From Pedosphaera sp. (GTDB taxonomy: Bacteria > Verrucomicrobiota > Verrucomicrobiia > Limisphaerales > DSYF01), in assembly GCA_017853715.1 (NCBI GenBank), contig JAFMIZ010000003.1, positions 20,611 through 84,610 on the forward strand: a DNA stretch of 64,000 nt, given 5' to 3'. Positions within the stretch are counted from its first letter, which is position 1; each line of letters begins with the position of its first letter. Under the pieces are notes generated by a model that had not been told where the DNA came from, made no database searches, and saw only the letters and a program-made list of their open reading frames with translations. The position numbers and the translations under genes are program-made. Below are positions 17,965 through 57,739 of the stretch, piece by piece.

Positions 17965-17986
17965 CTGTCACACAATTGTAACAATT
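17965..17986 (+). promoter_or_regulatory. Pho-box-like tandem 11-bp repeat (CTGTCACACAA TTGTAACAATT)
   Basis: Two 11-bp-phased TGT-containing half sites, 68 bp upstream of the porin-pst operon ATG. They resemble the enterobacterial Pho box CTGTCATA(A/T)A(A/T). Confidence 0.45.
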
Positions 17987-18053
17987 CCGCCTTTGCCGCG
18001 TAACAGGCCCGCCACAATGTGTCCGTGTCACGTAAACATTGCACAGACACATC

Positions 18054-19400: not shown

Positions 19401-19465
19401 AGTCACTGAACTGTAACCTAAATTCCCAATCGTTTGTGGTCTAATCAACGAACAATTACAGCAAA

Positions 19466-20308: not shown

Positions 20309-20315
20309 TTCGGGC

Positions 20316-20346
20316 GGCGCGCCCCGTATTGCGCGCCCTGCTTTTC
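20316..20346 (+). terminator. Intrinsic terminator/attenuator after pstS
   Basis: GGCGCGC-cccgtatt-GCGCGCC stem-loop followed by CTGCTTTTC, between pstS and pstC. Confidence 0.55.
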
Positions 20347-20397
20347 ACCACGGTTCCTCCGGTGAATCTGGCGGGCGATGTGTGACAGAATTGAAAA

Positions 20398-21621: not shown

Positions 21622-21622
21622 C

Positions 21623-22555: not shown

Positions 22556-22561
22556 TTTGTT

Positions 22562-23380: not shown

Positions 23381-23394
23381 TTTGACCTCTCTTC

Positions 23395-24069
23395 ATGCAA
23401 ACGCATCACGACAAGGAATTATCAGAGCTGAACAACAAGCTGCTCATCATGGCCAGCCATGCGGAGTCGTCCGTCACGCGCGCCGTGCAGGCCGTGGTCA
23501 ACCGTGATGAAGCGCTGGCCCGGCAGGTGCGGGCCGACGATGAAGTGCTTGACCGGTTGGAAGTGGAGCTGGACGAGATGGGCGTGGCGCTGCTGGCCAA
23601 GGCGCCGCTCGCGCGCGATCTGCGATTGGTGCTGATGGTGATGAAGATTTCGCAAAACCTCGAACGCATCGGCGACGAGGCTTCGAAGATTGCCAATCGC
23701 GCGCGCGATCTGGCGCAGGAAGCGCCGCTCAAGATCAACCTGGACATCGCCCACATGGCCCGGCTCGTGATTGATATGTTGAAGGGCGCGCTGGATGCCT
23801 TCGTGAAGCGTGATGCCATCGCTGCCCGAGTGCTGATTCCGCGCGACAAGGATGTGGATGCGCTCAACAAGCAGTTCCAAGCGGAACTCGTTGCGCTCAT
23901 GACGCAAGACGGCGGGAATGTCCGCCGCGCCCTCTGGCTCACGGTGGTTTCCAAGAGCTTGGAGCGTATCGCCGACCATGCGACGAATGTCGCTGAAGAT
24001 GTGGTTTACCTCTGCGAGGCGCTCGACATCCGCCACACGGGCAAGAACCCGCCTTCGCCGACCACCTGA
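23395..24069 (+). CDS. phoU: Phosphate signalling complex protein PhoU
   Basis: 224 aa with two PhoU repeats (NLERIGDEASKIA and SLERIADHATNVAE). Confidence 0.93.
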   Translation: MQTHHDKELSELNNKLLIMASHAESSVTRAVQAVVNRDEALARQVRADDEVLDRLEVELDEMGVALLAKAPLARDLRLVLMVMKISQNLERIGDEASKIANRARDLAQEAPLKINLDIAHMARLVIDMLKGALDAFVKRDAIAARVLIPRDKDVDALNKQFQAELVALMTQDGGNVRRALWLTVVSKSLERIADHATNVAEDVVYLCEALDIRHTGKNPPSPTT

Positions 24070-37855: not shown

Positions 37856-37878
37856 TTGCGGGTGAACGCTACTAAGTC

Positions 37879-37995
37879 GCGAAGCGTCTGGACTGCGGTG
37901 TCTTCCAGCACCGCTTTTGAGTTGTTTTGGATAAGGTGATGTTGAGCATGGGAAAGCGGCGCTCAAGCCGCACGCAGTCCAAACGCTGACACGCG
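37879..37995. repeat. Inverted pair of the GCGAAGCGTYTGGACTGCGGTG...CAGCACCGCT repeat unit (REP/MITE-like) between arsC and arsM
   Basis: The forward unit at 37879-37915 matches 17083-17119 apart from a 1-nt difference. A diverged inverted copy lies at about 37950-37995 (gggaaagcggcgctcaagccgcacgcagtccaaacgctgacacgc). Confidence 0.75.
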
Positions 37996-41938: not shown

Positions 41939-42096
41939 TGCGCTGTTTTCGATTGAACCCCGAGGGGGTAACATCGTTGTAGTTGAAGCAACCGGGAAGA
42001 TTCAAGCTTTGCCGCCCGGACGCCGTCACCCAATCGTCACGCAGTCGTTGCCTATGTGCCCGGGAGTTGTAACTCGCCTCTCGCAACCTGCGTGGC

Positions 42097-42951
42097 GTGA
42101 GTCAATGCTGGCCGCTATTGCTGACCGAGGAGACGCTTCCCGCGGGAGAGGAGCGTGCCTGTTCGTGTCCGGGTGACAGTTGGCAGTTCTGCCTGAACGC
42201 CGAAGGCGTGGTCTATTGGCTTGGCCGACCGGAGTCACGCGAGTTGAAAATCGGCGAGTTGCTGGTCTGTGGTCCGGGAGTGCACGGTGAACTGCGCGCA
42301 AGCCGGGTTGGCGACGCCAAGTTGCGCCGCTTCTGTTTCAATCCCGCTTCGCTCATCGGAGTTTTCAGTCTTACAGAGCGGGTGGATCTTTCGCGCGTCA
42401 GCGAAGGAGGGATTGAAGTTTTCCCGGCGGACCATCGCGCCAGTCAACTCGTTGCCGGTGCTGCTTTGCCTGAATCCGAAGAGCAACAACTGCCCAGCCG
42501 TGCGGATTTGCTACACGCAGCCTTGCTGGCCTTGGCTGGCCACCTGCCGCATCGAAATGGAGTCACCCGTCCGGCGACGAATTCGGATCAGCGATTGCAT
42601 CAACTCCTTTCGCGCACTCCCGATGGTGAATTACTTTCGCGTGGGGCCGGCGAAATTGCTGAGTTGTGCGGCTGCAGCGTGCGCCATCTCAACCGCCTCA
42701 TTCGCGCGGAACTCGATTGCAACCTGCGCTCGATCCAGGAGGAGGCCCGGCTGCGGCGTGCGCGTGAATTGATCGAGCAGACGGGTGCGCGCGTTTCCGA
42801 CATCGCCCGCGAGGTGGGCTACGGTCACGTGGGCCAGTTCAACGCCGCTTTCAAAAAATTGTTCGGCCTCACGCCCTCGCAATGTCGTGAGGCCTGTTTC
42901 CGAATCGTAACAAGCGCGTCATCGAAACGACACGGCCCTGCCGCAAAGTAA
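42097..42951 (+). CDS. AraC family transcriptional regulator
   Basis: 284 aa. C-terminal double HTH (ARELIEQTGARVSDIAREVGYGHVGQFNAAFKKLFGLTPSQCR). N-terminal cupin-like sensor region. Confidence 0.88.
   Translation: MSQCWPLLLTEETLPAGEERACSCPGDSWQFCLNAEGVVYWLGRPESRELKIGELLVCGPGVHGELRASRVGDAKLRRFCFNPASLIGVFSLTERVDLSRVSEGGIEVFPADHRASQLVAGAALPESEEQQLPSRADLLHAALLALAGHLPHRNGVTRPATNSDQRLHQLLSRTPDGELLSRGAGEIAELCGCSVRHLNRLIRAELDCNLRSIQEEARLRRARELIEQTGARVSDIAREVGYGHVGQFNAAFKKLFGLTPSQCREACFRIVTSASSKRHGPAAK
42894..42915 (+). promoter_or_regulatory. Pho-box-like motif CTGTTTCCGAA TCGTAACAAGC inside the 3' end of the araC-family gene
   Basis: 41 bp upstream of the DUF3450 gene ATG. The 19-nt core CCTGTTTCCGAATCGTAAC (42893-42911) is identical to 52110-52128. 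Confidence 0.4.
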
Positions 42952-42955
42952 CATC

Positions 42956-43717
42956 ATGAGATTGAACCCAGCTCATAGCCTCGTCCTCTTTAGTGCGTTG
43001 GCGGTCTTTTCCGCCACGGCTGAGGACACTTTGAACGACACCCGCTCCACCCTCGAAAAATGGGTGGAGACGCGGCAGTTGATTTCCAAGACCCGTGCCG
43101 ACTGGCAGGCGGACAAGGAGTCGCTTGAGCAGACCATCGCGCTCTACGAGCGAGAGCTGAAATCCATCGACGAGCAGATGGCGAAGGTCTCCACCAACAA
43201 CACCCAAGTAGCGAAGGAAATGGCCGAGGCGGAGGCGCTGAAGCGATCGTCGGGCGAGGCCAATGACGCGGCGCGCATCTTCGCGGGAAAGTTGGAGGCG
43301 AAGTTGCAGCAAGTCGCACCCAAGTTGCCCGCGCCATTGCAGGAGATGATCAAGAAAGACCTGGCCCGCATCCCGGCTGATCCGGCGAACAGCAAGATGC
43401 TCCCGGCGGAGCGCATGCAGGTGTGCGTCAACCTTCTCAACGAACTCGATAAGTTCAACAACAGCGTGAATCTCTTCAGTGACAAACGGAAGAACGCCGC
43501 TGGCGAGGAGGTGGCGGTGGAGACGATGTATGTGGGTTTGGGAGCGGCTTACTTTGTGAATGACGCGGGCGACTTTGCCGGTATCGGTGCGTTCGGTCCT
43601 GACGGCTGGACCTGGACAACGAAGCCGGAGATCGCGCCGGCGGTGCGCATGGCGGTGAAAGTCTATCGCAGCGAGCACCCGCCTGCGTTCGTAAAACTAC
43701 CCGCCACCATTCAATGA
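42956..43717 (+). CDS. DUF3450 (TtpB-like) periplasmic coiled-coil protein
   Basis: 253 aa. Signal peptide, long coiled-coil. Position directly upstream of the large MotA/ExbB-family gene, as in Vibrio TonB2-type clusters. Confidence 0.8.
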   Translation: MRLNPAHSLVLFSALAVFSATAEDTLNDTRSTLEKWVETRQLISKTRADWQADKESLEQTIALYERELKSIDEQMAKVSTNNTQVAKEMAEAEALKRSSGEANDAARIFAGKLEAKLQQVAPKLPAPLQEMIKKDLARIPADPANSKMLPAERMQVCVNLLNELDKFNNSVNLFSDKRKNAAGEEVAVETMYVGLGAAYFVNDAGDFAGIGAFGPDGWTWTTKPEIAPAVRMAVKVYRSEHPPAFVKLPATIQ

Positions 43718-45135
43718 AATCTTTCCCCATGAAGCTTGTTCGCAATTGTCTCGTTCTCTTCGCCGCCGCCGTTCCGTTCCTGAGCCCGGCCCAAGGCATG
43801 GATGCCCTGGTCAATGGCGCCGCCACGGACCTGCAAAAGGCCAGCGCTGAGTTGACCGCTGCACGCGCAGAGGTGGAAGCCGCCCGCCTGCCGATCGCCC
43901 GTCGCATCACCGAGCTGGAGCAGCAACTGATCTCCCGCCGGGCCGAACTGGCGAAGGCCCAGCGCTTCCAGGAAAACCAGTTGGTCGAGCTGAACGCTCT
44001 CAAAGCCGAGGCACGCCGCGCCTCGGAGGAAGTGAAGTTCACCGATTCTTTGATCACCGAATACGCCCGCGCATTTCGGTCGCGCTTGAGCTTTGTGGAA
44101 GAGCCGCGTTACGCGGCGATGTTTGACGCGGTGGATCATGCGGGTGCGGCTGCTGATCTGAGCATGGTGGCTCGTTTCACGCAGCGCACGGTTTTGCTCG
44201 AGACGGCGCTGGAACGCATCACCACGGCGCAGGGCGGTGAGTTGCTGGCAGGCAAGGCGATCGACAATCGCGGTCTCGTGCAATCCGGCAAGGTGGCGCT
44301 CATCGGTCCGGTGGCTTTGTTCGCCGCTGACTCCGGTGGCGCTGCCGGCTTATTGCAACAGGAGTTGAACAAGGCGGACCCCACGGTCGCCAAGCTGGAT
44401 GAGTCCCTCGTGGCGGCGAGCCAGCAACTGGCCACCACCGGCCAGGGTGAACTGGTGCTGGACCCGACGCTGGGCAGCGCGTTGAAGATGTCGGCGATGC
44501 ACAAGAGTCTTTACGAACAGCTCAAAGAAGGTGGCGTAGCCATGATTCCGCTGCTGGGCATGGGCATCGCGGCGATTTTGCTGGGCCTCTACAAATGGTG
44601 GCAGTTGAGCCGGGTGCGTGTGGCCACGGACAAGGACTTGCAACAAGTGCTCACCCATTTGACTTCTGGAGAGCAGGAGAAGGCGCTCAAGCACGCACAC
44701 AGCATCACGGGTTTTGCCGGCGACATGCTGGCCACGGCGATCCAGCACGTGGACGAAAAGAAGGAATACATCGAGGAGGTGCTTTACGAAAAGATGCTGG
44801 GCGCACGCACCAAGCTGGAGCGCGGCCTCCCCTTTCTCGCGCTGGCGGCCACGACGGGTCCGTTGCTCGGGCTGCTTGGCACGGTGACGGGCATGATCGC
44901 GACGTTCAAGGCCATCTCCAGTTTTGGCAGTGGCGATCCGAAGATGCTGGCGGCGGGCATTTCCGAGGCGCTGATCTGCACCGCCACCGGCATGGCCGTG
45001 GCCATTCCGTCCCTGCTGTTCCACGCGTTCCTCAGCCGCCGCGCCAAGGGTCTGATCGGTAGCATGGAGCAGACCGCGGTTGGCTTCGTCAATGGCGTGC
45101 CGGAGGGCGAATTCAAATCTCCGTTCGCGCAGTGA
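43714..45135 (+). CDS. Large MotA/TolQ/ExbB proton-channel family protein (TtpC-like)
   Basis: 473 aa. Long periplasmic N-terminal domain, then an ExbB-type channel core (GPLLGLLGTVTGMIATF, ISEALICTATGMAVAIP). ATGA overlap with the upstream gene. Confidence 0.88.
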   Translation: MKSFPMKLVRNCLVLFAAAVPFLSPAQGMDALVNGAATDLQKASAELTAARAEVEAARLPIARRITELEQQLISRRAELAKAQRFQENQLVELNALKAEARRASEEVKFTDSLITEYARAFRSRLSFVEEPRYAAMFDAVDHAGAAADLSMVARFTQRTVLLETALERITTAQGGELLAGKAIDNRGLVQSGKVALIGPVALFAADSGGAAGLLQQELNKADPTVAKLDESLVAASQQLATTGQGELVLDPTLGSALKMSAMHKSLYEQLKEGGVAMIPLLGMGIAAILLGLYKWWQLSRVRVATDKDLQQVLTHLTSGEQEKALKHAHSITGFAGDMLATAIQHVDEKKEYIEEVLYEKMLGARTKLERGLPFLALAATTGPLLGLLGTVTGMIATFKAISSFGSGDPKMLAAGISEALICTATGMAVAIPSLLFHAFLSRRAKGLIGSMEQTAVGFVNGVPEGEFKSPFAQ

Positions 45136-45155
45136 ACTTTAATTCCTGAAATCCC

Positions 45156-45833
45156 ATGAACGATCTGCTTCAACACATGTGGCATGCCTGGGCCGAGGGC
45201 GGCGTGGTGATGGGAGCGATGGCGCTGGTGGCGGTGATCACGTATGCCTGCGCGATCACGTTGCTGAATCACCTGCAGTATCGTGGGCTGACGAAGGCCT
45301 CTGACACCGTTCTGCGTGGCTGGGTCGCGCGTCCCGAGGCCGCGCCGCAGCGCATCCGCGAATTGATCCGCTACACGCAGGATGAACTCCACTCCGTGCG
45401 TGACATCGAGGGGCGTTTCCGTGAGATCGAAGCCACCAAGGTCACGGACGTGGACCGTCGTCTGGCGTTCTTGAACGTGCTCGTCATTTCCGCGCCGTTG
45501 TTCGGATTGCTGGGCACCGTGCTGGGAATGCTGTTGACCTTCAAAGCCATTGGCGTGGGCGGTAGTTCGGGCTCCGAGATCATCGCGCGCGGCATCAGCG
45601 AGGCGCTCGTCTGCACGCAGACCGGCATGATGGTCGCCATCCCCGGACTCGTCATGGCCATGATCGCCAAACGTCGCCGGCACGAGTATGTGGCGTTTCT
45701 GGCGCGGCTGGAGGGGATCACGTTGCGCCATTTCCGTCCCGAGTTCCACGGCATGACGCGTGTCTTCCGTAAGAACAGCGTGCCTGGATTGCAAGCTGGA
45801 GCGTTGGTCGACGCGCGGCCCAACCTGTCATGA
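45156..45833 (+). CDS. exbB: MotA/TolQ/ExbB proton-channel protein
   Basis: 225 aa. APLFGLLGTVLGMLLTF and ISEALVCTQTGMMVAIP. Confidence 0.9.
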   Translation: MNDLLQHMWHAWAEGGVVMGAMALVAVITYACAITLLNHLQYRGLTKASDTVLRGWVARPEAAPQRIRELIRYTQDELHSVRDIEGRFREIEATKVTDVDRRLAFLNVLVISAPLFGLLGTVLGMLLTFKAIGVGGSSGSEIIARGISEALVCTQTGMMVAIPGLVMAMIAKRRRHEYVAFLARLEGITLRHFRPEFHGMTRVFRKNSVPGLQAGALVDARPNLS

Positions 45834-46234
45834 AGCTGCGTCGTTCACTGTCCCAGCCGGAGGAGCCGATCGAGCTGAACCTGATTCCGCTCATCGATAT
45901 CATCATGTTCCTCCTGATCTTCTTCGTCTCCACGACGAGTTTCATGGAGGAGAAGGGCGTCAAAATAGATAAACCGGCCTCGGGCGGTGCGAGCACTTCC
46001 GAGAACACCACCATCGTCTTCATCGTGACGGCGGACGGCAAGATCACTTTCGACGGCAAAGAGGTCGGGTTGCAAGGCGTGCGCCCCACCGTGAAGCGGC
46101 TTTGCTCCAGCGAGCCATTGCCGGTGGTGGTGCAGACGCACGAGAACTCCCGGTCGGGGGTGATGGTCCGCATCCTCGACGAGGCGATGATGGGTGGCGC
46201 AAAAGACGTCAGCGTCGCCGCCAATCGAGGTTGA
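45830..46234 (+). CDS. exbD: ExbD/TolR biopolymer transport protein (copy 1)
   Basis: 134 aa. PIELNLIPLIDIIMFLLIFFV. 4-nt overlap with exbB. Confidence 0.9.
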   Translation: MKLRRSLSQPEEPIELNLIPLIDIIMFLLIFFVSTTSFMEEKGVKIDKPASGGASTSENTTIVFIVTADGKITFDGKEVGLQGVRPTVKRLCSSEPLPVVVQTHENSRSGVMVRILDEAMMGGAKDVSVAANRG

Positions 46235-46261
46235 ACGTGACTGATTGAGACGAGTTGAAAC

Positions 46262-46666
46262 ATGAGATTTCGCCGCACATTAGAAGAGCCGGAAGAGCCG
46301 ATCGAGCTGAACCTGATTCCGCTGATCGACATCATCATGTTCCTGCTCATCTTCTTCGTTTCGACGACGAGCTTCATCGAGGAGCCCGGGGTGGATGTGT
46401 CGAAGCCGAAGTCAGCGAATGCGCGGTTGCTCGACAAGAACAGCATCATTTTTGCCGTGACGCCGGATGGAAAGATCGCCTACGGAGGCAAGGAGGTGGG
46501 TTTGGGTGGAGTTCGTCCGGTGGTCAAGCGGCTGTGCGCCAAGGAGGCGTTGCCGGTGGTGATCCAGGCTGATGACGGGGCCCGCTCAGGCATCGTTATC
46601 CGGGTCATTGATGAAGCGAAGCTCGGGGGAGCGAAAGTGGTGAACATCGCCACGGAAAAGAGTTAG
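46262..46666 (+). CDS. exbD: ExbD/TolR biopolymer transport protein (copy 2)
   Basis: 134 aa. The N-terminal third is nearly identical to copy 1 (PEEPIELNLIPLIDIIMFLLIFFVSTTSF). Confidence 0.9.
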   Translation: MRFRRTLEEPEEPIELNLIPLIDIIMFLLIFFVSTTSFIEEPGVDVSKPKSANARLLDKNSIIFAVTPDGKIAYGGKEVGLGGVRPVVKRLCAKEALPVVIQADDGARSGIVIRVIDEAKLGGAKVVNIATEKS

Positions 46667-46673
46667 CGGGCCC

Positions 46674-47339
46674 ATGCGCAAGGTCTATCAGCAGGAGAGA
46701 AACCCGCTCGGCTTCGCCGTGGCGGTGTCGGCCGCAGTGGCGTTGACAGCGCTGCTGTTTGCCATCATTCCGTTCGCGCACCGACTCAACAAGCCGAGCA
46801 AGACGCTCGAACTGATCAAGACCACCACGATCGAGGCCAAGGAAGAAATCGAAGAGGAAGCACCTCCAGAAGTCGAGCCGGAGAACAAGCCGCCGGAAGC
46901 CGCTGCGGAACCTGAGCTGACTGAGACCGAGCAGGCGATTCCGCTGAGCGCTGATTTGGAAGTGGCCACCGGCACGGGCGGAGCGCTGGCAGGATTTGGT
47001 GCAGACATCAAATCGCTGACCGCCGCAACGGACGTGGCGCAGGATGCCTTTGACGTGAGCGACCTGGAGAAGCGTCCGGAGCCGACCTCGCAAGTGGTGC
47101 CCGCCTACCCGGCGGAACTGCGCAAGGCGAAGGTGGAGGGCGTGGTGACGCTCGTTTTCGTCCTGGATGAGACCGGTCGGGTGGAAGATCCGCGCGTGGA
47201 GAACTCCTCGCGTCCGGAATTTGAAAAGCCCGCGTTGGACGCCATCCGCAAATGGCGCTTCAGCCCTGGCATGAAAGACGGTCAGCCCGTGCGCACCTAC
47301 ATCCGCGTGCCGATGCGATTCCGCGTGGCAACGGGTTAA
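46674..47339 (+). CDS. tonB: Energy transducer TonB
   Basis: 221 aa. N-terminal anchor, Glu/Pro-rich spacer (EEEAPPEVEPENKPPEAAAEPE), and a TonB_C domain (PAYPAELRKAKVEGVVTLVFVLDETGRV...RFSPG). Confidence 0.88.
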   Translation: MRKVYQQERNPLGFAVAVSAAVALTALLFAIIPFAHRLNKPSKTLELIKTTTIEAKEEIEEEAPPEVEPENKPPEAAAEPELTETEQAIPLSADLEVATGTGGALAGFGADIKSLTAATDVAQDAFDVSDLEKRPEPTSQVVPAYPAELRKAKVEGVVTLVFVLDETGRVEDPRVENSSRPEFEKPALDAIRKWRFSPGMKDGQPVRTYIRVPMRFRVATG

Positions 47340-47385
47340 GCGTGTGCGACAGGCAGAATGCCCGTCCCCCTACGGAAAATTTTTT

Positions 47386-48954
47386 ATGAACCGACAATTA
47401 ATGAAAACCCTGGCCTGCGTGGCGATTCTTGCTGTTGGCGCCACCGCGGCGATTGCCGCCGATCCGAAGTTTTCCGATGTCCCCGGCATTGTTGATCCCG
47501 CCAAGAAGGCGGAGGCCACGCCTGAGACCAAGCAGCCGACCGCCCCTGCAAAAGAGAGCGCACCGAAGCCCGTTGCCAAAGCGTCTCCCGCAGCCGCACC
47601 TGTCGTCACTAATTCGCAGCCTGTCGCCGCCAGCACGGTCAACAAAGGCGCCGTCAAGGAGGGTTTGGACGCGCTGTGGAGCGATGCTGACTTCAAGAAG
47701 CGTTTGATCGGCAGCTACGGATTCGCCTCGGACGTTGAGCCGCGTTTGAATCCGGAAGAGCTGGCGACTTACCGCGACAAGGTGGTTCCGCTTTTGCGCG
47801 ACGACCCCAAGAAGGCGATGAGCGAACTCAAGTCGCTTGCCAAACCGGGTGCGAGCGCGGTGTTCGATTTCACGCTGGGCAACCTGTATTTCCAGCAGGA
47901 AGACCTGACGAACGCGGTGAAGTGTTTCGAGGCGGCCATCGCCAAGTATCCGGACTATCGCCGCGCCCACAAGAACCTTGGGTTCGCGCTCGTGCGTGAC
48001 GGCAAGCTCGCCGCCGCGATCAAGCCTTTGACGCAGACCATCGAACTTGGCGGCTCCGATGGCAAAGTGTTCGGCCTGCTCGGTTACACTTACGCGACGC
48101 TCGGTCGCAACGTCTCCGCCGAGGCAGCGTATCGGCAGGCGTTGGTGTTCGAGCCGGAGAATCTCGAATTCAAGCTCGGCCTCGTGAAGAGCGCGATTGC
48201 CACGGCGAACTACGACTACGCACTGGCGCTGCTGGATGAACTCATCAAGGAATATCCCGAGCGTGACACGTTGTGGACGTTGCAGGCGAATCTCTTCATC
48301 CAGAAAGATCAGCCCGCCAAGGCGGTCATCAGTCTCGAAATGTTGCGCCGTGCCGGCAAGGCCAGTCCCCAGACGCTTTATCTGTTGGGCGATCTTTACA
48401 TGTCCCAGGAGTCGCGCGATCTGGCGCTCGAGGCCTATCTGGCGGCGCTCGATCAGGATGGTGGTGCAAATCCCACGAAGGCCTTGCGGGCGGCGCAGAT
48501 TCTGGTCAGCCGGGGCGCTTGGACTGAGGCGGAACAGTTGTTCGCCAAAATTCACGCCGCCTCCACGCAGTTGGAAGAAAAAGATGAACTCAAGTTGTTG
48601 AAGCTCGAATCCAAGGTGGCGATGTCCACCGGCGCGGGCGAAAAGGCGATTGTGACGCTGGAACAGATTGTGCAGAAAGATCCGCTCGATGGCGAAGCGT
48701 TGCTCCTCACGGGCGACTACTATTCCAAGAATGGCCAGAAGGAGAAGGCTGAGCTGCGCTACGAAGCGGCGGCGGCGATTCAGGGATTCGAGGCGGATGC
48801 CTTCGTGAAGCACGCCCAACTGCTCGTGCAATCGCAGAAATACGTTCAGGCCACCGACCTCTTGAAGAAGGCTCAGAAAGTCAAACCGCGCGACAACGTG
48901 CAACGCTACTTGGATAAGGTGGAGCAGCTCGCCCGTAACAGCGGACGCTCGTAA
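47386..48954 (+). CDS. Periplasmic TPR-repeat protein (TtpD-like position)
   Basis: Start at ATG 47386 (MNRQLMKTLACVAILAVGATAAIA). Multiple TPR-like repeats. Follows tonB as in TonB2-type clusters. Confidence 0.82.
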   Translation: MNRQLMKTLACVAILAVGATAAIAADPKFSDVPGIVDPAKKAEATPETKQPTAPAKESAPKPVAKASPAAAPVVTNSQPVAASTVNKGAVKEGLDALWSDADFKKRLIGSYGFASDVEPRLNPEELATYRDKVVPLLRDDPKKAMSELKSLAKPGASAVFDFTLGNLYFQQEDLTNAVKCFEAAIAKYPDYRRAHKNLGFALVRDGKLAAAIKPLTQTIELGGSDGKVFGLLGYTYATLGRNVSAEAAYRQALVFEPENLEFKLGLVKSAIATANYDYALALLDELIKEYPERDTLWTLQANLFIQKDQPAKAVISLEMLRRAGKASPQTLYLLGDLYMSQESRDLALEAYLAALDQDGGANPTKALRAAQILVSRGAWTEAEQLFAKIHAASTQLEEKDELKLLKLESKVAMSTGAGEKAIVTLEQIVQKDPLDGEALLLTGDYYSKNGQKEKAELRYEAAAAIQGFEADAFVKHAQLLVQSQKYVQATDLLKKAQKVKPRDNVQRYLDKVEQLARNSGRS

Positions 48955-48972
48955 TCAATCGCTCCACGCTTC

Positions 48973-51798
48973 ATGGAATTTATCTCCATTCCCGCACGTG
49001 TATCGCGATGGCTCGTCGCGACTGGCTGCCTGCTGTCGTGCCTGCTCGTGCCTGCGGCCCAGGCGCAGGACAACGGTGCCGTGGCGGGTGTGGTGATCAG
49101 CACGTGGGACGGCACGCCTTTGTCCGGCGCAACCATCACCGTGCGCGGGACCACACTGGCAGCGCAGACCGGCGCGAATGGCCAGTTCGAATTGAAGAAC
49201 GTTCCGCCGGGCGATCAAGTGTTGCGCTTCTCCAAGTCCGGTTTTGCTGCGGCCACGGTGACGGATGTGCGGGTGTTGCCTGGTCAAACCACGACGGTGA
49301 ACGGCAACCTGCGCCCCGAATTCTACGAGATGGAGGAATACGAGGTGACGGCGGAGGAGTTTCAGGAGCAGACGGAGGCGATCATTTTTGAACGGCAACA
49401 ATCTGCCGGCATGCTTGACGGCATCGGCTCGGAGCAGTTCGCCAAGCTCGGTGCGGGTGACGCAGCGGAGGCATTGGGCAAAGTTGCCGGGGCCAGCATT
49501 TCCGATGGCAAGTTCGCGGTCATCCGTGGCTTGGCAGATCGTTACACCACCACCACGCTCAACGGCAACGAGCTGCCCAGCGCTGATCCGGATCGTAAGG
49601 CGGCGCAACTGGACCTTTTACCGGCGCAGTTCATCGAGCGCATGGACGTCAGCAAAACCTTCAGTCCGGACATGGCCGGTGGATTCGCGGGAGGTTCCAT
49701 TGATATCATCACGAAGAGTTACCCGAAGGACGGCATGTTCAGCTTCAGTGTTGGAACTTCCTACAATACGCAGGCCAGCTTGAACGACGAGTTCCCGATG
49801 ACGGATCGTGGCGGCACCGACTGGTTGGCGATGGACGACGGCACGCGCGAATTGCCCGCCGTGGCAGTCGCGTCATCACCAGCGGGCTCGGGTGGTCCGG
49901 TGCAGAATGAAACAGCCGTGCAGAACAGTTTCAATTCCACGCAACTCTCGCCGATTGCAGACAAGTCGCCCTTGAACTCCAGCCTGTCGCTCGCGTTCGG
50001 GGACAGCAAACAGATGGGCGACGTCAAGGTGGGTTTCATCGGCTCGCTGTCCTACAAGAATGATTACACCTATTACGACAAGGTGACCGTGCGCGAGTAT
50101 GAGGGCCCGCAGAATGTGGTGAAGGACAAGGTCGGCAAGGTCGGAAAGATCGAGTATAACTGGGGCGCTTCTGGTGGTCTGACGCTCGGTCTGGGCGAGC
50201 ACCACGAAGTGAAGTTCAATTACCTCAACGTTCAGGCGGCCGAAGATGAGGCGGCGCGTTTTCAGGGGCAGGATTTGAACGTGGGCACCGAGCCCGGCGA
50301 GACTTACCTCGACCAGTCGGTGCTGCATTGGACCGAGCGCAATCTATCGTATTACCAGCTCGTGGGCTCGCATGACTTGCCTGACTTGAATGACCTGAAA
50401 TTCGACTGGGCGAGTGCTTACTCGATCGCAACTCAGGAGGAGCCGGACTATCGCATCTTTCAATTCGTCGCCAACACCAACAACTCGGTGTATCTGCCCC
50501 AAGCGGCGACGGATCCTGCGTTTCCTACCCGTTATTGGCGAGATTTGGAGGAGAACAATATCAATCTACGTGGCGACTTCACCGTGCCACTGCCGTCCTA
50601 TAATTCGGGTGACAATGCCTTCAAGACGGGGGTGGCCTTGAGCGATTCCTCGCGCGAGTTTTTCCAGCGTGGTTGGGAAATGCGCTACACCAGTCTGGGG
50701 CATCCCTTCATCCGGAATGGCGATCCACAAAGCTATCTGGACCCGACCAATGCGGCGTTCATCGAATATCGGAATTTTCCCGCGAACATCACCTATGACG
50801 GCGCGCAAACCATCGAAGCGGTCTATGCGATGGGTGATTGGTCGGCGCTCGAATGGCTGCGAGTGGTCGGTGGTGCGCGTCTGGAGAAGACGGACCTCTC
50901 CATCGAGGGCGTGAATCAAACCTTGAACGATCGTCCGCTGCCGTCTGGGGAGATCAAGCGCGACGACTGGCTGCCCTCCTTGAGCGGAACGATCTCTTTG
51001 CGTGAGAATCTGCAATTACGCGCGGCATGGTCCCAAACCGTGGTGCGCCCCGCCTATCGCGAGATTGCGCCCGTGATCATCTACGACATCGCCCAAGGCC
51101 GCACCATCAGTGGCAATCCGGACCTGACCTTCGCCGAGAGCGCCAATTACGACCTGCGGCTCGAATGGTTTCCTCGCGCGGGCGAATTGGTGTCCGCGTC
51201 CTTGTTCTACAAGCAGGTGGACAGCCCCATTGAACTCTCGGCTGAAGACTTCTCCGGCGACTCGCTGACTTATCGCAACTTCGACAAGGCCGATGTCATG
51301 GGGGTGGAGGCGGAATATCGCTCGCGCCTTGACCGCTTCTGGGAGCCGCTTAGTCCCTTCACGCTCGGATTCAACGCCGCCTACATTTACTCCGAGGTTC
51401 CACTCACGCCGGACCAAATTACCATCCGGCAGGGAGCCTTTGGCAGCACGGACACTACGCGTCCGCTCTACGAACAGCCTGAATACGTGGCCAATGCCGA
51501 CCTAACTTGGGAGCTTGAAGCCACGCGCACGTCCATCACTCTTTCCGGCGGCATCGTGGGTCCGCGACTCGTGGTGGTGGGGTTGGCCCAGCCCGACGAA
51601 TACGAGCAGCCCGCGCCGCAGCTGGATTTGTTCATCAGTCAGAAGCTCGGCAAGCATTGGAAGCTGAAGTTCTCCGCCAAGAACCTCCTCGACCCTGAAT
51701 ACGAGACTATCCAGACCTATCCCAATGGTGATGAAGTCACCATCGAAAGTTACAAGAGGGGGATGACCTTCGGGCTCTCGCTGGGTTGCGAGTTTTGA
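48973..51798 (+). CDS. TonB-dependent receptor with an N-terminal carboxypeptidase-regulatory-like domain
   Basis: 941 aa. Signal peptide, CarboxypepD_reg-like segment (GVVISTWDGTPLSGATITVRGT...NGQFELKNVPPG), plug (FAVIRGLADRYTTTTLNGNELPS), and a barrel ending in GLSLGCEF. Confidence 0.9.
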   Translation: MEFISIPARVSRWLVATGCLLSCLLVPAAQAQDNGAVAGVVISTWDGTPLSGATITVRGTTLAAQTGANGQFELKNVPPGDQVLRFSKSGFAAATVTDVRVLPGQTTTVNGNLRPEFYEMEEYEVTAEEFQEQTEAIIFERQQSAGMLDGIGSEQFAKLGAGDAAEALGKVAGASISDGKFAVIRGLADRYTTTTLNGNELPSADPDRKAAQLDLLPAQFIERMDVSKTFSPDMAGGFAGGSIDIITKSYPKDGMFSFSVGTSYNTQASLNDEFPMTDRGGTDWLAMDDGTRELPAVAVASSPAGSGGPVQNETAVQNSFNSTQLSPIADKSPLNSSLSLAFGDSKQMGDVKVGFIGSLSYKNDYTYYDKVTVREYEGPQNVVKDKVGKVGKIEYNWGASGGLTLGLGEHHEVKFNYLNVQAAEDEAARFQGQDLNVGTEPGETYLDQSVLHWTERNLSYYQLVGSHDLPDLNDLKFDWASAYSIATQEEPDYRIFQFVANTNNSVYLPQAATDPAFPTRYWRDLEENNINLRGDFTVPLPSYNSGDNAFKTGVALSDSSREFFQRGWEMRYTSLGHPFIRNGDPQSYLDPTNAAFIEYRNFPANITYDGAQTIEAVYAMGDWSALEWLRVVGGARLEKTDLSIEGVNQTLNDRPLPSGEIKRDDWLPSLSGTISLRENLQLRAAWSQTVVRPAYREIAPVIIYDIAQGRTISGNPDLTFAESANYDLRLEWFPRAGELVSASLFYKQVDSPIELSAEDFSGDSLTYRNFDKADVMGVEAEYRSRLDRFWEPLSPFTLGFNAAYIYSEVPLTPDQITIRQGAFGSTDTTRPLYEQPEYVANADLTWELEATRTSITLSGGIVGPRLVVVGLAQPDEYEQPAPQLDLFISQKLGKHWKLKFSAKNLLDPEYETIQTYPNGDEVTIESYKRGMTFGLSLGCEF

Positions 51799-52110
51799 GT
51801 TTGCAGCCTCAGCCAAACGCGCTGGATGGCGTCTCTTATCCCAAGAGCAGACGATTGCCGTTGCTGGGAGTTCCGGCTCTAGCCGTAACTATGCGGCCAC
51901 GCGGCGACGCCCCGTCGCAGCTATTTAGCAGAAAGCCAACTGTATCGTTACAGCTGTCGCCGGTTCCTTAAGCCACACCCCGCCTTCGCCGGACCGGCTA
52001 AAGCCGGGACTCCAAGCAATAGTTCATGGTGCAGGAGAGCCACACGCGACCGCCAGCTTCCCGATGGCCCTAATCACTCCGTCGCCTGTTTGCTTTGTGC
52101 CCTTCGTTCC

Positions 52111-52132
52111 CTGTTTCCGAATCGTAACCCCG
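52111..52132 (+). promoter_or_regulatory. Pho-box-like motif CTGTTTCCGAA TCGTAACCCCG
   Basis: 111 bp upstream of ATG 52243. The 19-nt core (52110-52128) is identical to 42893-42911. Confidence 0.4.
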
Positions 52133-52242
52133 CCGACTTCGTTCCTTCACATCAGCCCTCCATTGTTCCAACGGATTTCCTGATCCGTCCCAGCGGGCCA
52201 GGTTCCTCAATCCCTAAACAGACAAAGCAACTCAACAAGCAA

Positions 52243-55197
52243 ATGAAGAAACTTAAGAACCTCCTCGGCTCACTCGCCATCGCGGGCCTCCTCGGCTCGA
52301 CGACGGCTCAGGGTGCCTTGGTGATCGTCACTAACGACATCGCCGCTGGCACCACCAATACGTGGGTATCCACAAACGAATACCTGCTGAACACGATGGT
52401 GTATGTGCAAAGCAACGCGGTATTGAACATTGAACCCGGCACGGTGGTGAAAGGCGGGACGAACGCGGCGAACCTGATTGCGCGTAATGGGTTGCAGAAC
52501 CTAGTGGCGGGCTTGTGGGTGACACGAGGCGGCAAGCTGTATGCGACGGGCACGGTGAGCGCGCCGATCATCTTCACGATGGAAGGTGACGACGTGAACA
52601 ACCCGAGCGATGTGCCGCCGACCACGACGGGCAAGTGGGGTGGGATCGTGATGATGGGCCGTGCGAGCATCAACAGCGCGCAGTTTGCGGCGGGTCAGGC
52701 GGCGAGTCCGAAGTATGACGTGTATGAAGGCGTGGCGACGGTGCCGTCGCCGCAGACCGAACACATCTTTGGCGGTAATGATGACAGCGACAGCAGCGGT
52801 GCGTTGCGGTATGTGAGCATCCGGCACACGGGCAACACGTTTGCGCCGGGCAAGGAGCTGAACGGGTTGACGATGGGCGGAGTGGGCAGCGGGACGGACA
52901 TCTCGTATGTGGAAGTGCTGGCCAGCTCGGACGACGGGTTCGAGTGGTGGGGCGGCACGGTGAGCACGCACCATCTGATCGGCGCGTTCAACGAAGACGA
53001 CGACTTCGACACGGATCAGGGCTATCGCGGGACGAATCAGTTTTGGTTTGCGATCAAGCCGCCGTGGGCTGGGAGCAGCGACAGCCGCGCGATGGAGACG
53101 GACGGTGACCTGAACCAGACGGTGCTGGGCGATGCGACACCGTTCAGCCAGTGGACGGTTTACAACGCGACGTTGATTGGCCGCGGCAAGGGCGACATCC
53201 TGGACCTGGGTGGTAATCAGGGCTGGAACGCGCGTGATGAGGCGGCGCCGAACGTCTTCAACTCGGTGTTTGCGGAGTTCAACAACGGGTTGTTGCTGGA
53301 CGGGGATGGGCTGTATCACTGGACGAACACGACGGTGCGGGCGAGCACGAAGAACTGTGTGTGGGACAATGTGAATGCGGGGAATGCGAATGGCTTGTCG
53401 TTCATCACTAATGCGGCCAACAACCACTTCGTCGGGGCAGCTCTCCTCGGCGGTATCAGCTATACCAATACGTCAAAGCTCAACCCTCGTCCGCTTTCGA
53501 CCAGCCCGGCCTTAACGCAGCCTGCGTTGGCGGGCGCCCCGGTGACGGCTCCTTATCGTGGAGCATTCTCTGGCATCAACGACGACTGGGCGGACGACTG
53601 GAGCGCAGTTTCAACTGAGGGTTATTTGGCGGCGTCGGGCAGCAAACCCACGATCGTCATCACCAATGACATTGCCGCAGGCACGACCAACACCTGGTCC
53701 GGCAGCGCTGAATATCTGCTCAACACGATGGTGTATGTGCAAAGCAACGCGGTATTGAACATTGAACCCGGCACGGTGGTGAAAGGCGGGACGAACGCGG
53801 CGAACCTGATTGCGCGTAATGGGTTGCAGAACCTAGTGGCGGGCTTGTGGGTGACACGAGGCGGCAAGCTGTATGCGACGGGCACGGTGAGCGCGCCGAT
53901 CATCTTCACGATGGAAGGTGACGACGTGAACAACCCGAGCGATGTGCCGCCGACCACGACGGGCAAGTGGGGTGGGATCGTGATGATGGGCCGTGCGAGC
54001 ATCAACAGCGCGCAGTTTGCGGCGGGTCAGGCGGCGAGTCCGAAGTATGACGTGTATGAAGGCGTGGCGACGGTGCCGTCGCCGCAGACCGAACACATCT
54101 TTGGCGGTAATGATGACAGCGACAGCAGCGGTGCGTTGCGGTATGTGAGCATCCGGCACACGGGCAACACGTTTGCGCCGGGCAAGGAGCTGAACGGGTT
54201 GACGATGGGCGGAGTGGGCAGCGGGACGGACATCTCGTATGTGGAAGTGCTGGCCAGCTCGGACGACGGGTTCGAGTGGTGGGGCGGCACGGTGAGCACG
54301 CACCATCTGATCGGCGCGTTCAACGAAGACGACGACTTCGACACGGATCAGGGCTATCGCGGGACGAATCAGTTTTGGTTTGCGATCAAGCCGCCGTGGG
54401 CTGGGAGCAGCGACAGCCGCGCGATGGAGACGGACGGTGACCTGAACCAGACGGTGCTGGGCGATGCGACACCGTTCAGCCAGTGGACGGTTTACAACGC
54501 GACGTTGATTGGCCGCGGCAAGGGCGACATCCTGGACCTGGGTGGTAATCAGGGCTGGAACGCGCGTGATGAGGCGGCGCCGAACGTCTTCAACTCGGTG
54601 TTTGCGGAGTTCAACAACGGGTTGTTGCTGGACGGGGATGGGCTGTATCACTGGACGAACACGACGGTGCGGGCGAGCACGAAGAACTGTGTGTGGGACA
54701 ATGTGAATGCGGGGAATGCGAATGGCTTGTCGTTCATCACTAATGCGGCCAACAACCACTTCGTCGGGGCAGCGTTGCTGACCAGCATCAGTTACACGAA
54801 CACGATGGCGCTGGATCCGCGCCCGCAGGCGGGCAGTCCGGCGTTGACGGATGCGCTACCGGGCGCGCCGGTGGCCACCACCTACCGTGGTGCCTTCGGC
54901 CCTAACGACAATTGGGCGAGTGGCTGGACTGCACTTGCCACCGAAGGCTTTCTCAGCACGAACACCGTGATAGTGCCCCCGACGGCTCCGACCATCACCT
55001 CGGTGGCGGGCAGTGGCACGTTGTCGTTCTCGGTGAGTTCACAGAACGGTTACAGCTACATCCTACAAGCCACGCCGGTGTTGAGTCCCCCGGCTTGGAC
55101 CAACAAGGAAACTCTGCCGGGTAACGGTGGGACGTTGAACTTCGCGCCGGTCGTCACGACCAATGCGATGGAATACTTCCGTATCCTCGCCCAGTGA
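52243..55197 (+). CDS. Large secreted protein with two tandem ~444-aa units (beta-helix-like, unknown function) and a C-terminal beta-sandwich tail
   Basis: Start at ATG 52243 (MKKLKNLLGSLAIAGLLGSTTAQG). Each unit begins IVTNDIAAGTTNTW...YLLNTMVYVQSNAVLNIEPGTVVKGG and contains SSDDGFEWWGGTV and DDDFDTDQGYRG. The tail ends EYFRILAQ. Confidence 0.85.
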   Translation: MKKLKNLLGSLAIAGLLGSTTAQGALVIVTNDIAAGTTNTWVSTNEYLLNTMVYVQSNAVLNIEPGTVVKGGTNAANLIARNGLQNLVAGLWVTRGGKLYATGTVSAPIIFTMEGDDVNNPSDVPPTTTGKWGGIVMMGRASINSAQFAAGQAASPKYDVYEGVATVPSPQTEHIFGGNDDSDSSGALRYVSIRHTGNTFAPGKELNGLTMGGVGSGTDISYVEVLASSDDGFEWWGGTVSTHHLIGAFNEDDDFDTDQGYRGTNQFWFAIKPPWAGSSDSRAMETDGDLNQTVLGDATPFSQWTVYNATLIGRGKGDILDLGGNQGWNARDEAAPNVFNSVFAEFNNGLLLDGDGLYHWTNTTVRASTKNCVWDNVNAGNANGLSFITNAANNHFVGAALLGGISYTNTSKLNPRPLSTSPALTQPALAGAPVTAPYRGAFSGINDDWADDWSAVSTEGYLAASGSKPTIVITNDIAAGTTNTWSGSAEYLLNTMVYVQSNAVLNIEPGTVVKGGTNAANLIARNGLQNLVAGLWVTRGGKLYATGTVSAPIIFTMEGDDVNNPSDVPPTTTGKWGGIVMMGRASINSAQFAAGQAASPKYDVYEGVATVPSPQTEHIFGGNDDSDSSGALRYVSIRHTGNTFAPGKELNGLTMGGVGSGTDISYVEVLASSDDGFEWWGGTVSTHHLIGAFNEDDDFDTDQGYRGTNQFWFAIKPPWAGSSDSRAMETDGDLNQTVLGDATPFSQWTVYNATLIGRGKGDILDLGGNQGWNARDEAAPNVFNSVFAEFNNGLLLDGDGLYHWTNTTVRASTKNCVWDNVNAGNANGLSFITNAANNHFVGAALLTSISYTNTMALDPRPQAGSPALTDALPGAPVATTYRGAFGPNDNWASGWTALATEGFLSTNTVIVPPTAPTITSVAGSGTLSFSVSSQNGYSYILQATPVLSPPAWTNKETLPGNGGTLNFAPVVTTNAMEYFRILAQ
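52390..53441 (+). repeat. Copy 1 of the 1,052-bp identical core of the 1,332-bp tandem duplication
   Basis: Matches 53722-54773 at an offset of exactly 1,332 bp. Derived ORFs in both strands are identical in the track (52501-53427 = 53833-54759; 52695-53012 = 54027-54344; 53177-53374 = 54509-54706). Confidence 0.9.
53722..54773 (+). repeat. Copy 2 of the 1,052-bp identical core of the 1,332-bp tandem duplication
   Basis: See copy 1. Flanks of the units (52321-52389 versus 53650-53721, and 53442-53640 versus 54774-54960) are clearly diverged. Confidence 0.9.
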
Positions 55198-56152: not shown

Positions 56153-56174
56153 CTGTGTCCTAATTGTAACAATC
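56153..56174 (+). promoter_or_regulatory. Pho-box-like tandem 11-bp repeat (CTGTGTCCTAA TTGTAACAATC)
   Basis: Near-copy of 17965-17986. Lies in the divergent region between the CHAD gene and the small-ORF operon, 41 bp upstream of ATG 56215. Confidence 0.4.
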
Positions 56175-56214
56175 CTTCCCCTGGCCTGACACATCCCCGG
56201 GGCACCTTGCGCGC

Positions 56215-56391
56215 ATGACTTTGAAGCTTGGACTCATGCACTCACCGCGATCTTCCAACCGCCTGCCGGTTGAGGCGATAGACTTTTACGCGCCGCGCCG
56301 GGTGACCTTGTCTGCCGCCAGTCCGATGGAATTTTTGGTGCGCTTGCGGGAAACCCGTCGGCGCATGCGACGAAGCTGGAAAGGAGATTGA
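56215..56391 (+). CDS. Possible small ORF (58 aa, Arg-rich)
   Basis: ATG at 56215 to TGA at 56389-56391 (MTLKLGLMHSPRSSNRLPVEAIDFYAPRRVTLSAASPMEFLVRLRETRRRMRRSWKGD). Below the ORF-track size cutoff. Its 3' end contains the AAGGAG Shine-Dalgarno (SD) sequence of the next ORF. Confidence 0.3.
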   Translation: MTLKLGLMHSPRSSNRLPVEAIDFYAPRRVTLSAASPMEFLVRLRETRRRMRRSWKGD

Positions 56392-56393
56392 CC

Positions 56394-56711
56394 ATGCGAT
56401 TCAACTACCGCCCTTCATGTCAGTTGTCGCCCGGGTTTGAACGCCTGAGCCCTTCATGTTCAATCAACCGGATCGACTTTGATGTTCCGCAGCCTTCCCG
56501 GGCCGAGCAATTGCTCGCGCGGCTGCTGGCCCGGGCTTTTGGGGCTTTTCCAGAATCCCATTTCAAGCGCCCCTTGGTGCGCGCCGCCAAGGAAGCCGCC
56601 CGCATGACTCAGGACACGGGTTACGCTGTCCCGTTGCTGCCCGAGTTGTTTGCCGAACTGGCCCTGCGGGAAATGCTTCGCGCTGAGTACCTGCGCATGG
56701 GCCGGATTTGA
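56394..56711 (+). CDS. Hypothetical protein (105 aa)
   Basis: ATG at 56394, preceded by AAGGAG at 56381-56386 (7-nt spacing). No recognisable motif. Lies 25 nt upstream of the acyltransferase gene. Confidence 0.5.
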   Translation: MRFNYRPSCQLSPGFERLSPSCSINRIDFDVPQPSRAEQLLARLLARAFGAFPESHFKRPLVRAAKEAARMTQDTGYAVPLLPELFAELALREMLRAEYLRMGRI

Positions 56712-56736
56712 AACACGTGACTTCATACGCACACCA

Positions 56737-57513
56737 ATGATCGTCGAATCCGTCAGCGCACCCACCATCAAAGCTTCACGACTAGCCTCAACCACCGAGG
56801 CTTACACCGTTCGCCTCGCATCTTCACTCGTGGAGATTCGAGCCACGCAAGCGCTGCGGTTCAACGTCTTCAATCTCGAACTCAATGAGGGCCTGGCCGA
56901 GTCCTACGTCACGGGTCTCGACGTGGATGCCTTTGACACGGTTTGCGATCACCTGCTGGTCGAGCACGTGGCGACGGGTTGTATTGTGGGAACCTATCGC
57001 CTGCAGACGGGCCCCATGGCGGCGGCGAATCTCGGTTACTACAGCGCACAGGAATTTGATTTCGCCCCGTTCGAGCCGCTGCGAAACGAAGTCGTTGAAC
57101 TGGGCCGCGCCTGCGTGGATCGGTTGCATCGCAATCTCATCGTGCTGGGGTTGCTGTGGAAGGGCATCGCGCAATATGCCAACGCGCGGGGCTGCCGATA
57201 CTTGATTGGGTGCAGTTCATTGCCCTCGGTGGATCCGAAGGCGGGTGCGCGTGTTTATTCTGATCTGTGCCGGCGGCATCTGGTGGAGCCATCGCTTCGC
57301 ACCAATCCACTGCCGCACTGCGAGTGTTCATTGCGTGAACTTGACGAGGACGCTCCCGAAGTGCCCAAGCTGCTGCGCGCCTACCTCGGCATGGGCGCGA
57401 AGATTTGCGGCGTGCCTGCGATAGACCGTCAGTTTGGCACCATTGATTTCCTGACGTTGTTGGACCTCGAGGCGCTGCCCGCCTTGGCGCGAGCCCGGTT
57501 TCTTGGGGTCTAG
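56737..57513 (+). CDS. GNAT-fold N-acyl amino acid synthase / OlsB-like acyltransferase (Acetyltransf_5 type)
   Basis: Start at ATG 56737. RATQALRFNVFNLEL, GTYRLQTG, VELGRACVDRLHRN and YLGMGAKICGVPAIDRQFGTIDFLTLLD match the hemolysin-like/OlsB family as I recall it. Confidence 0.8.
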   Translation: MIVESVSAPTIKASRLASTTEAYTVRLASSLVEIRATQALRFNVFNLELNEGLAESYVTGLDVDAFDTVCDHLLVEHVATGCIVGTYRLQTGPMAAANLGYYSAQEFDFAPFEPLRNEVVELGRACVDRLHRNLIVLGLLWKGIAQYANARGCRYLIGCSSLPSVDPKAGARVYSDLCRRHLVEPSLRTNPLPHCECSLRELDEDAPEVPKLLRAYLGMGAKICGVPAIDRQFGTIDFLTLLDLEALPALARARFLGV

Positions 57514-57596: not shown

Positions 57597-57645
57597 GGCT
57601 GCTTCCTTGCGGGAGGAAGCGGCCCTCTCCTTTTTTGCTTTTTCC
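57597..57645 (+). terminator. Intrinsic terminator after the acyltransferase operon
   Basis: GGCTGCTTCCT-tgcggg-AGGAAGCGGCC (1 mismatch) followed by CTCTCCTTTTTTGCTTTTT. Confidence 0.7.
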
Positions 57646-57739
57646 GGAAAATGTAACAATTGGTTGCTTGTGCGGGGGGCGTCGCGCGTTACCCTGCGCA
57701 GTTGTAAACCAGCAACAGTTTGATTTGGGAGCACACGCT

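Follow-up and report, generated by a model that had tools for sequence, protein, structure and literature searches.

In Escherichia coli, the Pho box has the form CTGTCAT-N4-CTGTCAT, and what marks a site as a Pho box, as known from the Pho regulon of that organism, is a 7+4+7 direct repeat standing before pst as well as phoB. One search of the literature turned up no account of Pho boxes from Verrucomicrobia.

Several described systems share components with the locus reported here. The TonB2 operon of Vibrio (ttpB2-ttpC2-exbB2-exbD2-tonB2-ttpD2) carries a Fur box, is induced by iron limitation and serves siderophore uptake (PMC6957404). In P. aeruginosa, exbB2-exbD2-tonB4 belongs to the phosphate-starvation regulon of PhoB and sigma-VreI (PMC7035377, PMC4971064). 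Caulobacter crescentus produces ElpS (CC0170), a secreted lipoprotein of ~50 kDa, in response to phosphate starvation; the protein is exported by a type II system, and its gene lies beside that of the TonB receptor CC0171 (PMC2996285). Ornithine lipids, which are phosphorus-free, show PhoB-dependent induction in several bacteria (PMC12186959).

Organization of the Locus

The DNA analyzed (the window) is a stretch of 64,000 nucleotides, C201:20611-84610, from a draft assembly of 3,018,859 bases in 203 contigs with 60% G+C (genome label G000). Positions are those of the window unless a contig is named. The principal genes, and the element that separates the two units, are as follows.

42097-42951, + strand: AraC-family regulator gene (Pfam)
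42956-51798, + strand: unit 1 (Pfam; synteny), comprising a ttpB-like DUF3450 gene, a gene for a 473-aa MotA/ExbB-family protein (ttpC-like), exbB, exbD, exbD, tonB, a TPR gene (ttpD-like) and a receptor gene
51777-51802, + strand: terminator-like hairpin and T run, overlapping the end of the receptor gene and parting unit 1 from the secreted-protein gene
52243-55197, + strand: unit 2, the gene for a 984-aa secreted protein with two near-identical modules of ~444 aa, each a predicted parallel beta-helix

The genome encodes three TonB systems, unit 1 among them. Unit 1 resembles the Vibrio TonB2 operon in its order of parts, with DUF3450, a large MotA/ExbB-family protein, ExbB, ExbD, TonB and, last, a TPR protein. 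By contrast with that operon, predicted Pho boxes fill the promoter, there are two exbD genes, and the set extends to a receptor and a beta-helix protein. The P. aeruginosa set likewise combines a private TonB energizer with secreted or surface proteins under phosphate starvation, a condition that is predicted for the present locus. However, no DUF3450, TtpC or TPR genes are described for the P. aeruginosa set, which involves an ECF sigma factor as well as PhoB and has a two-partner-secretion exoprotein as its partner. The TonB-dependent receptor of unit 1 has a CarboxypepD_reg N-domain, and its best NCBIfam match is TonB-Xanth-Caul (Xanthomonas/Caulobacter subfamily). The gene order ttpB-ttpC-exbB-exbD-tonB-TPR-receptor-beta-helix protein is conserved across loci. 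Within unit 1, the two exbD genes, which lie in tandem, are 91% identical over 98 nt (45855-45952 and 46287-46384), and this suggests a recent duplication or conversion between the paralogues.

The secreted protein belongs to a family tagged PF28492 in the protein database, with hundreds of relatives, most of them two-module proteins. A signal peptide is present; the N-terminus, MKKLKNLLGSLAIAGLLGSTTAQGA, contains no cysteine and hence no lipobox. The protein had no match in local Pfam and NCBIfam searches, or in the PDB when searched by sequence and by profile. AlphaFold modeling of a single module gave a pLDDT of 52 with 13 sequences and of 93.7 with 60 sequences, and the latter model is a predicted right-handed parallel beta-helix. 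When this model was used for a fold search, the matches to parallel beta-helix proteins, e.g. pectate lyases and tailspikes, were weak (E > 1e-3, TM ≤0.37), and therefore no function follows from them. Some homologues are fused to PF05787 (PhoX-type phosphatase) and Ig domains (P0089, P0092, P0095, P0097, P0104 and P0119), and the PF05787 fusions would provide an independent link of the beta-helix family to phosphorus scavenging. At ~50 kDa, ElpS has the size of one module and also has a TonB-receptor gene as neighbor; unlike ElpS, the protein encoded here has a signal peptide without a lipobox cysteine and has two modules.

A 19-nt Sequence Shared by Two Upstream Regions

An earlier reading of the window from its letters alone (the sequence-only reading) had pointed to an exact 19-nt match between the regions upstream of the Ttp/TonB cluster and of the secreted-protein gene, considered it unlikely to have arisen by chance, and proposed a shared site that co-regulates both. 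The match was confirmed by searches of the window and the assembly. CCTGTTTCCGAATCGTAAC occurs exactly at 42893-42911 (copy 1) and 52110-52128 (copy 2), in both cases on the + strand, and the window contains no third match at ≤3 mismatches. These two copies are the sole ones in the 3.02-Mb assembly, in which the nearest other sequences differ at 4 or more positions, and a match was obtained in 0 of 100 shuffled versions of the window. Copy 1 corresponds to codons 266-272 of the 284-codon AraC ORF, past the HTH domain, and so does lie within the last AraC codons as had been described; the spacing between its end and the DUF3450 ATG at 42956 is 44 nt rather than the 41 bp previously given, and the distance from CTGT to ATG is 62 nt. 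Copy 2 lies within the 444-bp gap, correctly recognized earlier, between the receptor stop at 51798 and the secreted-protein ATG at 52243. An Rfam scan of this gap returned zero families, and a scan of 51700-52300 for sigma-70 -35/-10 consensus promoters was likewise negative. A near-palindrome with inverted GTAAC-like half-sites, CAACTGTATCGTTACAGCTG, is present at 51937-51956 in the same gap.

The degenerate pattern of the sequence-only reading, CTGTNNCNNAATNGTAAC (below, the strict pattern), has exactly four matches genome-wide, at window positions 17965, 42894, 52111 and 56153. Each of the four is a + strand match that precedes a gene of that strand, and the reversed pattern has 0 matches genome-wide. 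The 11-bp phasing that the sequence-only reading had noticed at 17965 and 56153 is borne out. It had also reported a looser relative at 57641-57660. The quoted sequence is present there but is not a significant relative, because it scores 6.4 bits with the site matrix and ~200 matches of at least 9 bits occur in the genome; this loose site is noise.

Evidence that the 19-mer Is Probably a Pho Box

The 19-mer reads CTGTTTC-CGAA-TCGTAAC. The Pho box consensus obtained here is yyGTCAC-nnAA-tyGTaAC, two 7-bp direct repeats one helical turn apart (7+4+7, with an A-rich spacer), and the first half-site of the 19-mer (CTGTTTC) deviates from its GTCAC element. Across 50 aligned sites, G3, T4, A6, C7, A10, A11, T12, G14, T15, A17 and C18 are nearly invariant. 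Two further promoters in the window contain sites of this kind.

17965-18020, + strand: pst promoter, CTGTCAC-acaa-TTGTAAC, two more in-phase half-sites and -10 CAATGT (18015-18020)
56153-56217, + strand: predicted Pho promoter, CTGTGTC-ctaa-TTGTAAC, -10 CACCTT (56203-56208), predicted start 56215

The box at 17965 is situated 71 nt upstream of porin-pstS-pstC-pstA-pstB-phoU (18054-24069), with a predicted start at ~18027 and the ATG at 18054. Elsewhere in the genome, a matrix scan located the box CCGTCACCCAATCGTCAC at C186:13326, 58 nt upstream of a candidate phoB gene, where the half-sites CCGTCAC, TCGTCAC, CTGTCGC and CCGTCAT are in perfect 11-bp phase. Because the same 7+4+7 repeat precedes both pst and phoB, the 19-mer is very probably a Pho box, i.e. 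a binding site for a PhoB dimer that would confer phosphate-starvation control, and the probability of this reading is put at roughly 0.87. We infer from the sequences that PhoB binds the predicted sites and that they are induced at low phosphate.

The candidate PhoB gene (C186:13402-14085) is followed by a gene for a PhoR/PnpS-like histidine kinase. The product of the candidate gene is the best match to TIGR02154 in the genome at 242.9 bits (next best, 155 bits), a score that falls below the NCBIfam equivalog cut-off of 296.2 bits, and among solved structures MtrA, BaeR and RegX3 are as close to it as PhoB is. The putative assignment as PhoB rests on context, namely on this best family match (below the curated cut-off), the gene's surroundings in relatives and the location of the sites.

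The genome-wide distribution of the motif was established with two models. An 18-nt matrix, built from sites of this genome and phoB sites of relatives, identified seven sites of at least 20 bits genome-wide, and the reversed matrix identified 0; one of the seven is the 19-mer copy inside the AraC tail, and the other six fall in intergenic DNA. A second model, 56 nt long, was trained on promoters of other genomes only (36 in number) and recovered exactly six sites in the present genome of at least 20 bits (pst, phoB, secreted protein, ttp, 56153 and araC), with a next-best site of 17.5 bits and 0 sites with the reversed control. The window holds five of the six predicted PhoB promoters that are detectable by the 56-nt model in the whole genome. 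The motif does not occur at similar frequency inside genes genome-wide, in line with the sequence-only reading: the six or seven strong sites are all at promoter positions and the controls gave 0. When the strict pattern was relaxed by 1-3 mismatches genome-wide, the counts were no higher than those of reversed or column-permuted controls; the strict pattern was therefore overfitted, and a matrix was needed. Applied to 40 relatives, the strict pattern gave four matches, zero of them from the same genus or family, and conservation emerged after targeted footprinting with the matrix, not with the strict pattern.

A reading of GTAAC as an ECF-sigma or core-promoter element was dropped given the pst and phoB sites and the 11-bp phasing. 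Outside the window, at C110:8829-8846, a Pho-box-like direct repeat, GTGTCACAAAAATGTCAC, scores 21.3 bits with the 18-nt matrix. It lies ~370 nt upstream of dnaA in A/T-rich, origin-of-replication-like surroundings and was not recovered by the 56-nt promoter model.

Conservation of the Box in Relatives

Of 13 relatives, 10 have a box ~60-80 nt ahead of phoB, and the remaining three have phoB immediately after phoU. All six relatives compared at the pst or porin operon have a box before it, and a box also precedes the DUF3450 gene in G003, G004, G005 and G035. The ttp upstream regions were footprinted in a sample of 54 public loci encoding DUF3450 relatives, 25 of them from Verrucomicrobiota. 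Among these 25, a box of at least 13 bits lies within ~100 nt of the DUF3450 start in 22, and the chance expectation is 0.011 sites of at least 12 bits per ttp upstream region. Pho-box-like sites of 12 to 17 bits are present in the receptor-to-beta-helix gap in six cases (G003, G004, L039, L049, L053 and L054). The box is therefore conserved in orthologous upstream regions at phoB, pst, ttp and the secreted-protein gap, and the proposal of a shared site that co-regulates the Ttp/TonB cluster and the secreted-protein gene is supported by a motif that is promoter-restricted and conserved at orthologous loci. Since the box is also upstream of pst, phoB and araC-less ttp clusters, it would be the general Pho box of the genome and not a private operator of the ttp locus or of AraC.

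The same-genus genomes G001 and G002 contain no DUF3450/Ttp cluster at E ≤ 1e-10, and both have phoB with a Pho box; the cassette is therefore patchy even among close relatives.

Promoter Layout and Predicted Transcription Starts

For analysis of the layout, 50 sites were aligned on box I alone, such that the remaining positions played no part in the alignment. Peaks at positions 25, 27, 29 and 36, 37, 39, 40 revealed a second box that keeps the 11-bp phase. Further downstream, 38 of the 50 sites have A at position 52 and 40 have T at position 56, the two key positions of a -10 element, with zero information between them. The predicted -10 element is a weak YAnnnT hexamer 10 bp past the fourth half-site, which would represent the classic PhoB promoter layout. 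In the two promoters that contain the 19-mer, the elements are as follows.

42893-42911, + strand: predicted ttp Pho box I (19-mer copy 1), half-sites CTGTTTC 42894-42900 and TCGTAAC 42905-42911
42916-42933, + strand: predicted ttp Pho box II, GCGTCAT 42916-42922 and ACGACAC 42927-42933, in 11-bp phase with box I
42944-42949, + strand: predicted ttp -10, CAAAGT (YAnnnT), 10 bp past the fourth half-site
52110-52128, + strand: predicted secreted-protein Pho box I (19-mer copy 2), CTGTTTC 52111-52117 and TCGTAAC 52122-52128
52133-52166, + strand: predicted secreted-protein box II and -10, CCGACTT 52133-52139, CCTTCAC 52144-52150 and CATTGT 52161-52166

These promoters resemble the E. coli pstS, phoA and phoB promoters in their 7-bp direct repeats, 4-bp A/T-rich spacer and 11-bp period (CTGTCAT in E. 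coli compared with CyGTCAC here), in the tandem boxes that stand where a -35 element would be, with 10 bp between their end and the -10, and in the placement of boxes at pst and phoB. They differ in the preference of the second half-site for GTAAC and in a -10 reduced to a minimal YAnnnT; moreover, several units appear to be leaderless, and the lineage is one of uncultured Verrucomicrobiota.

The distance from box to ATG is exactly 62 nt in 14 ttp loci, including that of G000, and 63-65 nt in most others. No Shine-Dalgarno sequence was found before the ttp start codons in the loci compared. Given that the predicted ttp transcription start coincides with the A of the ATG at 42956, the ttp mRNA would be leaderless. 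At the secreted-protein promoter, the half-sites of box II are weak, and the predicted start at ~52173 would give a leader of ~70 nt to the ATG at 52243. The secreted-protein gene needs its own box because the terminator-like hairpin precedes it.

The promoter at 56153 precedes a 58-aa ORF whose ATG, at 56215, is exactly 62 nt from the start of the box. Downstream of this ORF are a 105-aa ORF and then a gene for an OlsB-like N-acyltransferase (56650-57513), and a CHAD gene is divergent from the unit on the opposite strand. The 58-aa ORF (56215-56391) is Arg-rich and begins at the predicted transcription start. The exact 62-nt spacing from the Pho box and the coincidence with the predicted transcription start support the view that it is a real, leaderless first gene of the small-ORF/OlsB-like operon. 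Among five relatives, the promoter of this GNAT operon (56153 type) is kept in G004 alone; G004 has a similar arrangement with an ATG at +63 (MFNLSL...), which is not seen in the other four.

A mechanism consistent with these features can be proposed. The four 7-bp half-sites at 11-bp spacing would constitute two tandem boxes occupying the -35 position. When phosphate is limiting, PhoB in its phosphorylated form would bind to the boxes and bring in RNA polymerase, such that two separate transcription units, the ttp/receptor unit and the gene for the secreted beta-helix protein, would be switched on together. Further predicted targets of this regulator are pst, araC, the small-ORF/OlsB-like operon and the phoB gene itself. 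Rather than a repressor operator, the site is most likely an activator site standing in for the -35 element. The genes of the predicted regulon fit phosphate sparing and scavenging: pst, phoB, the OlsB-like acyltransferase (phosphorus-free lipids) and the CHAD gene.

The araC Gene and Its Upstream Box

The AraC-family regulator gene has a predicted Pho promoter of its own.

42023-42089, + strand: predicted araC promoter, CCGTCAC, TCGTCAC, TCGTTGC, GTGCCCG and TTGTAAC in phase, -10 CAACCT (42084-42089)

The predicted araC transcription start at ~42096 adjoins the GTG start codon at 42097. The box at 42023-42040, CCGTCACCCAATCGTCAC, is identical over 18 nt to that of phoB at C186:13326-13343, and araC has its own upstream box in L040, L042 and L043 also. 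Since araC is itself preceded by a Pho box, it is likely a target rather than a binder of the box.

At its 3' end, the AraC ORF enters the ttp promoter by ~19 codons, and its tail (...CREACFRIVTSASSKRHGPAAK*) runs through the predicted PhoB sites. Where frames could be read cleanly (L040, L041, L045 and L046), the related AraC ORF ends 15-35 nt before the ttp box. Because the related ORFs end before the box, the tail in the present genome (42893-42951) looks like a read-through extension that overlaps the predicted PhoB sites.

Alternative Regulators and the Identity of the Box Pairs

AraC regulators often control neighboring TonB uptake genes and are able to bind direct repeats. The 19-mer might on these grounds be an operator of the adjacent AraC protein, privately controlling the Ttp/TonB cluster and the secreted-protein gene, and araC does lie directly upstream of ttp both here and in six related loci (29-36% identity). 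Site and regulator do not consistently co-occur across genomes, however. The box is present at 22 of 25 Verrucomicrobiota ttp loci, whereas araC adjoins ttp in 6 loci only and most ttp loci have no araC nearby; conversely, L042 and L045 contain araC but lack a good ttp box. Against this reading, too, are the boxes that precede pst, phoB and araC itself, the last both here and in the three loci named above, and we regard an AraC operator as very improbable. PhoB, not the neighboring AraC, is most likely the regulator of the shared site. A different member of the OmpR/PhoB family responding to a signal other than phosphate, e.g. the second-best paralogue (C189:6795-7439), is also unlikely, though somewhat less so. 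Direct repeats with 11-bp phasing are the usual targets of winged-helix regulators in this family, the genome encodes receiver-domain proteins by the dozen and no fewer than two full-length regulators of the OmpR family, and the PhoB candidate scores below the curated cut-off, all of which would leave room for another binder. Yet the strongest sites precede pstSCAB-phoU and the PhoB candidate itself, the candidate lies directly after phoU in four relatives, and the half-site is nearly that of the E. coli Pho box.

The identity of the two copies requires separate consideration. The genome contains two identical box pairs, ttp with secreted protein and araC with phoB (18 nt). The ttp and secreted-protein boxes agree at every degenerate position. 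In same-genus relatives, several positions of the phoB box are different. Under the site matrix, independent 18-nt identity of two sites is expected at ~3e-4 per pair. Because shared specificity predicts identity in only ~3 in 10,000 pairs, something beyond recognition by PhoB appears to be involved. The 19-nt identity could accordingly be ascribed to DNA copying, by a short conversion tract or as the remnant of a repeat element, and not to the function of the sequence. The improbability of identity at all degenerate positions, the existence of the second pair and the signs of gene conversion nearby, in the secreted-protein modules and the exbD pair, all favor such copying. In opposition to this, the similarity ends abruptly at the edges of the 19-mer, both boxes sit in the conserved promoter layout, and orthologous positions in other genomes carry different functional-looking boxes (CTGTTTCCTGATTGTCAC at ttp in L036 and CTGTTGCTGAATCGTAAC at the secreted-protein gene in L039), from which it follows that both sites are old and that their identity here is secondary. 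Copying would explain at most the identity, not the existence of the sites, and as a substitute for function it is highly doubtful. For two functional Pho boxes, the identical pairs could stem from short-tract copying or from selection for matched promoter strength.

Two REP-like repeat pairs, both unrelated to the Pho boxes, were also observed in the window. One is a 21-nt perfect inverted pair (2458-2478 and 17047-17067), and the other is a 44-nt direct pair with 93% identity (17081-17124 and 37877-37920).

Discussion

With the 19-mer taken as a Pho box, the data provide a near-complete predicted Pho regulon and a concrete promoter layout for an uncultured verrucomicrobial lineage. Phosphate starvation becomes the predicted trigger for a widespread cassette that consists of a TonB2/Ttp energizer, a TonB-dependent receptor and a beta-helix protein of an uncharacterized family. 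The regulatory principle is textbook; what is new is the lineage-specific instance and a cassette tied to phosphate starvation. A broader interpretation, offered tentatively and with odds that we would place a little short of even, is that Verrucomicrobiota possess a conserved, self-powered machine for phosphorus capture. In such a machine, PhoB would fire together a private TonB2/Ttp motor, one receptor dedicated to it and a tandem beta-helix protein that is secreted or at the surface. The promoters would have a fixed layout, with several leaderless ones among them, and the identical box pairs would hint at selection for matched strength or at short-tract homogenization.

The predicted promoters also lead to corrected gene starts, namely those of ttpB, which we infer to be leaderless, of araC at GTG 42097 and of the 58-aa ORF at 56215.
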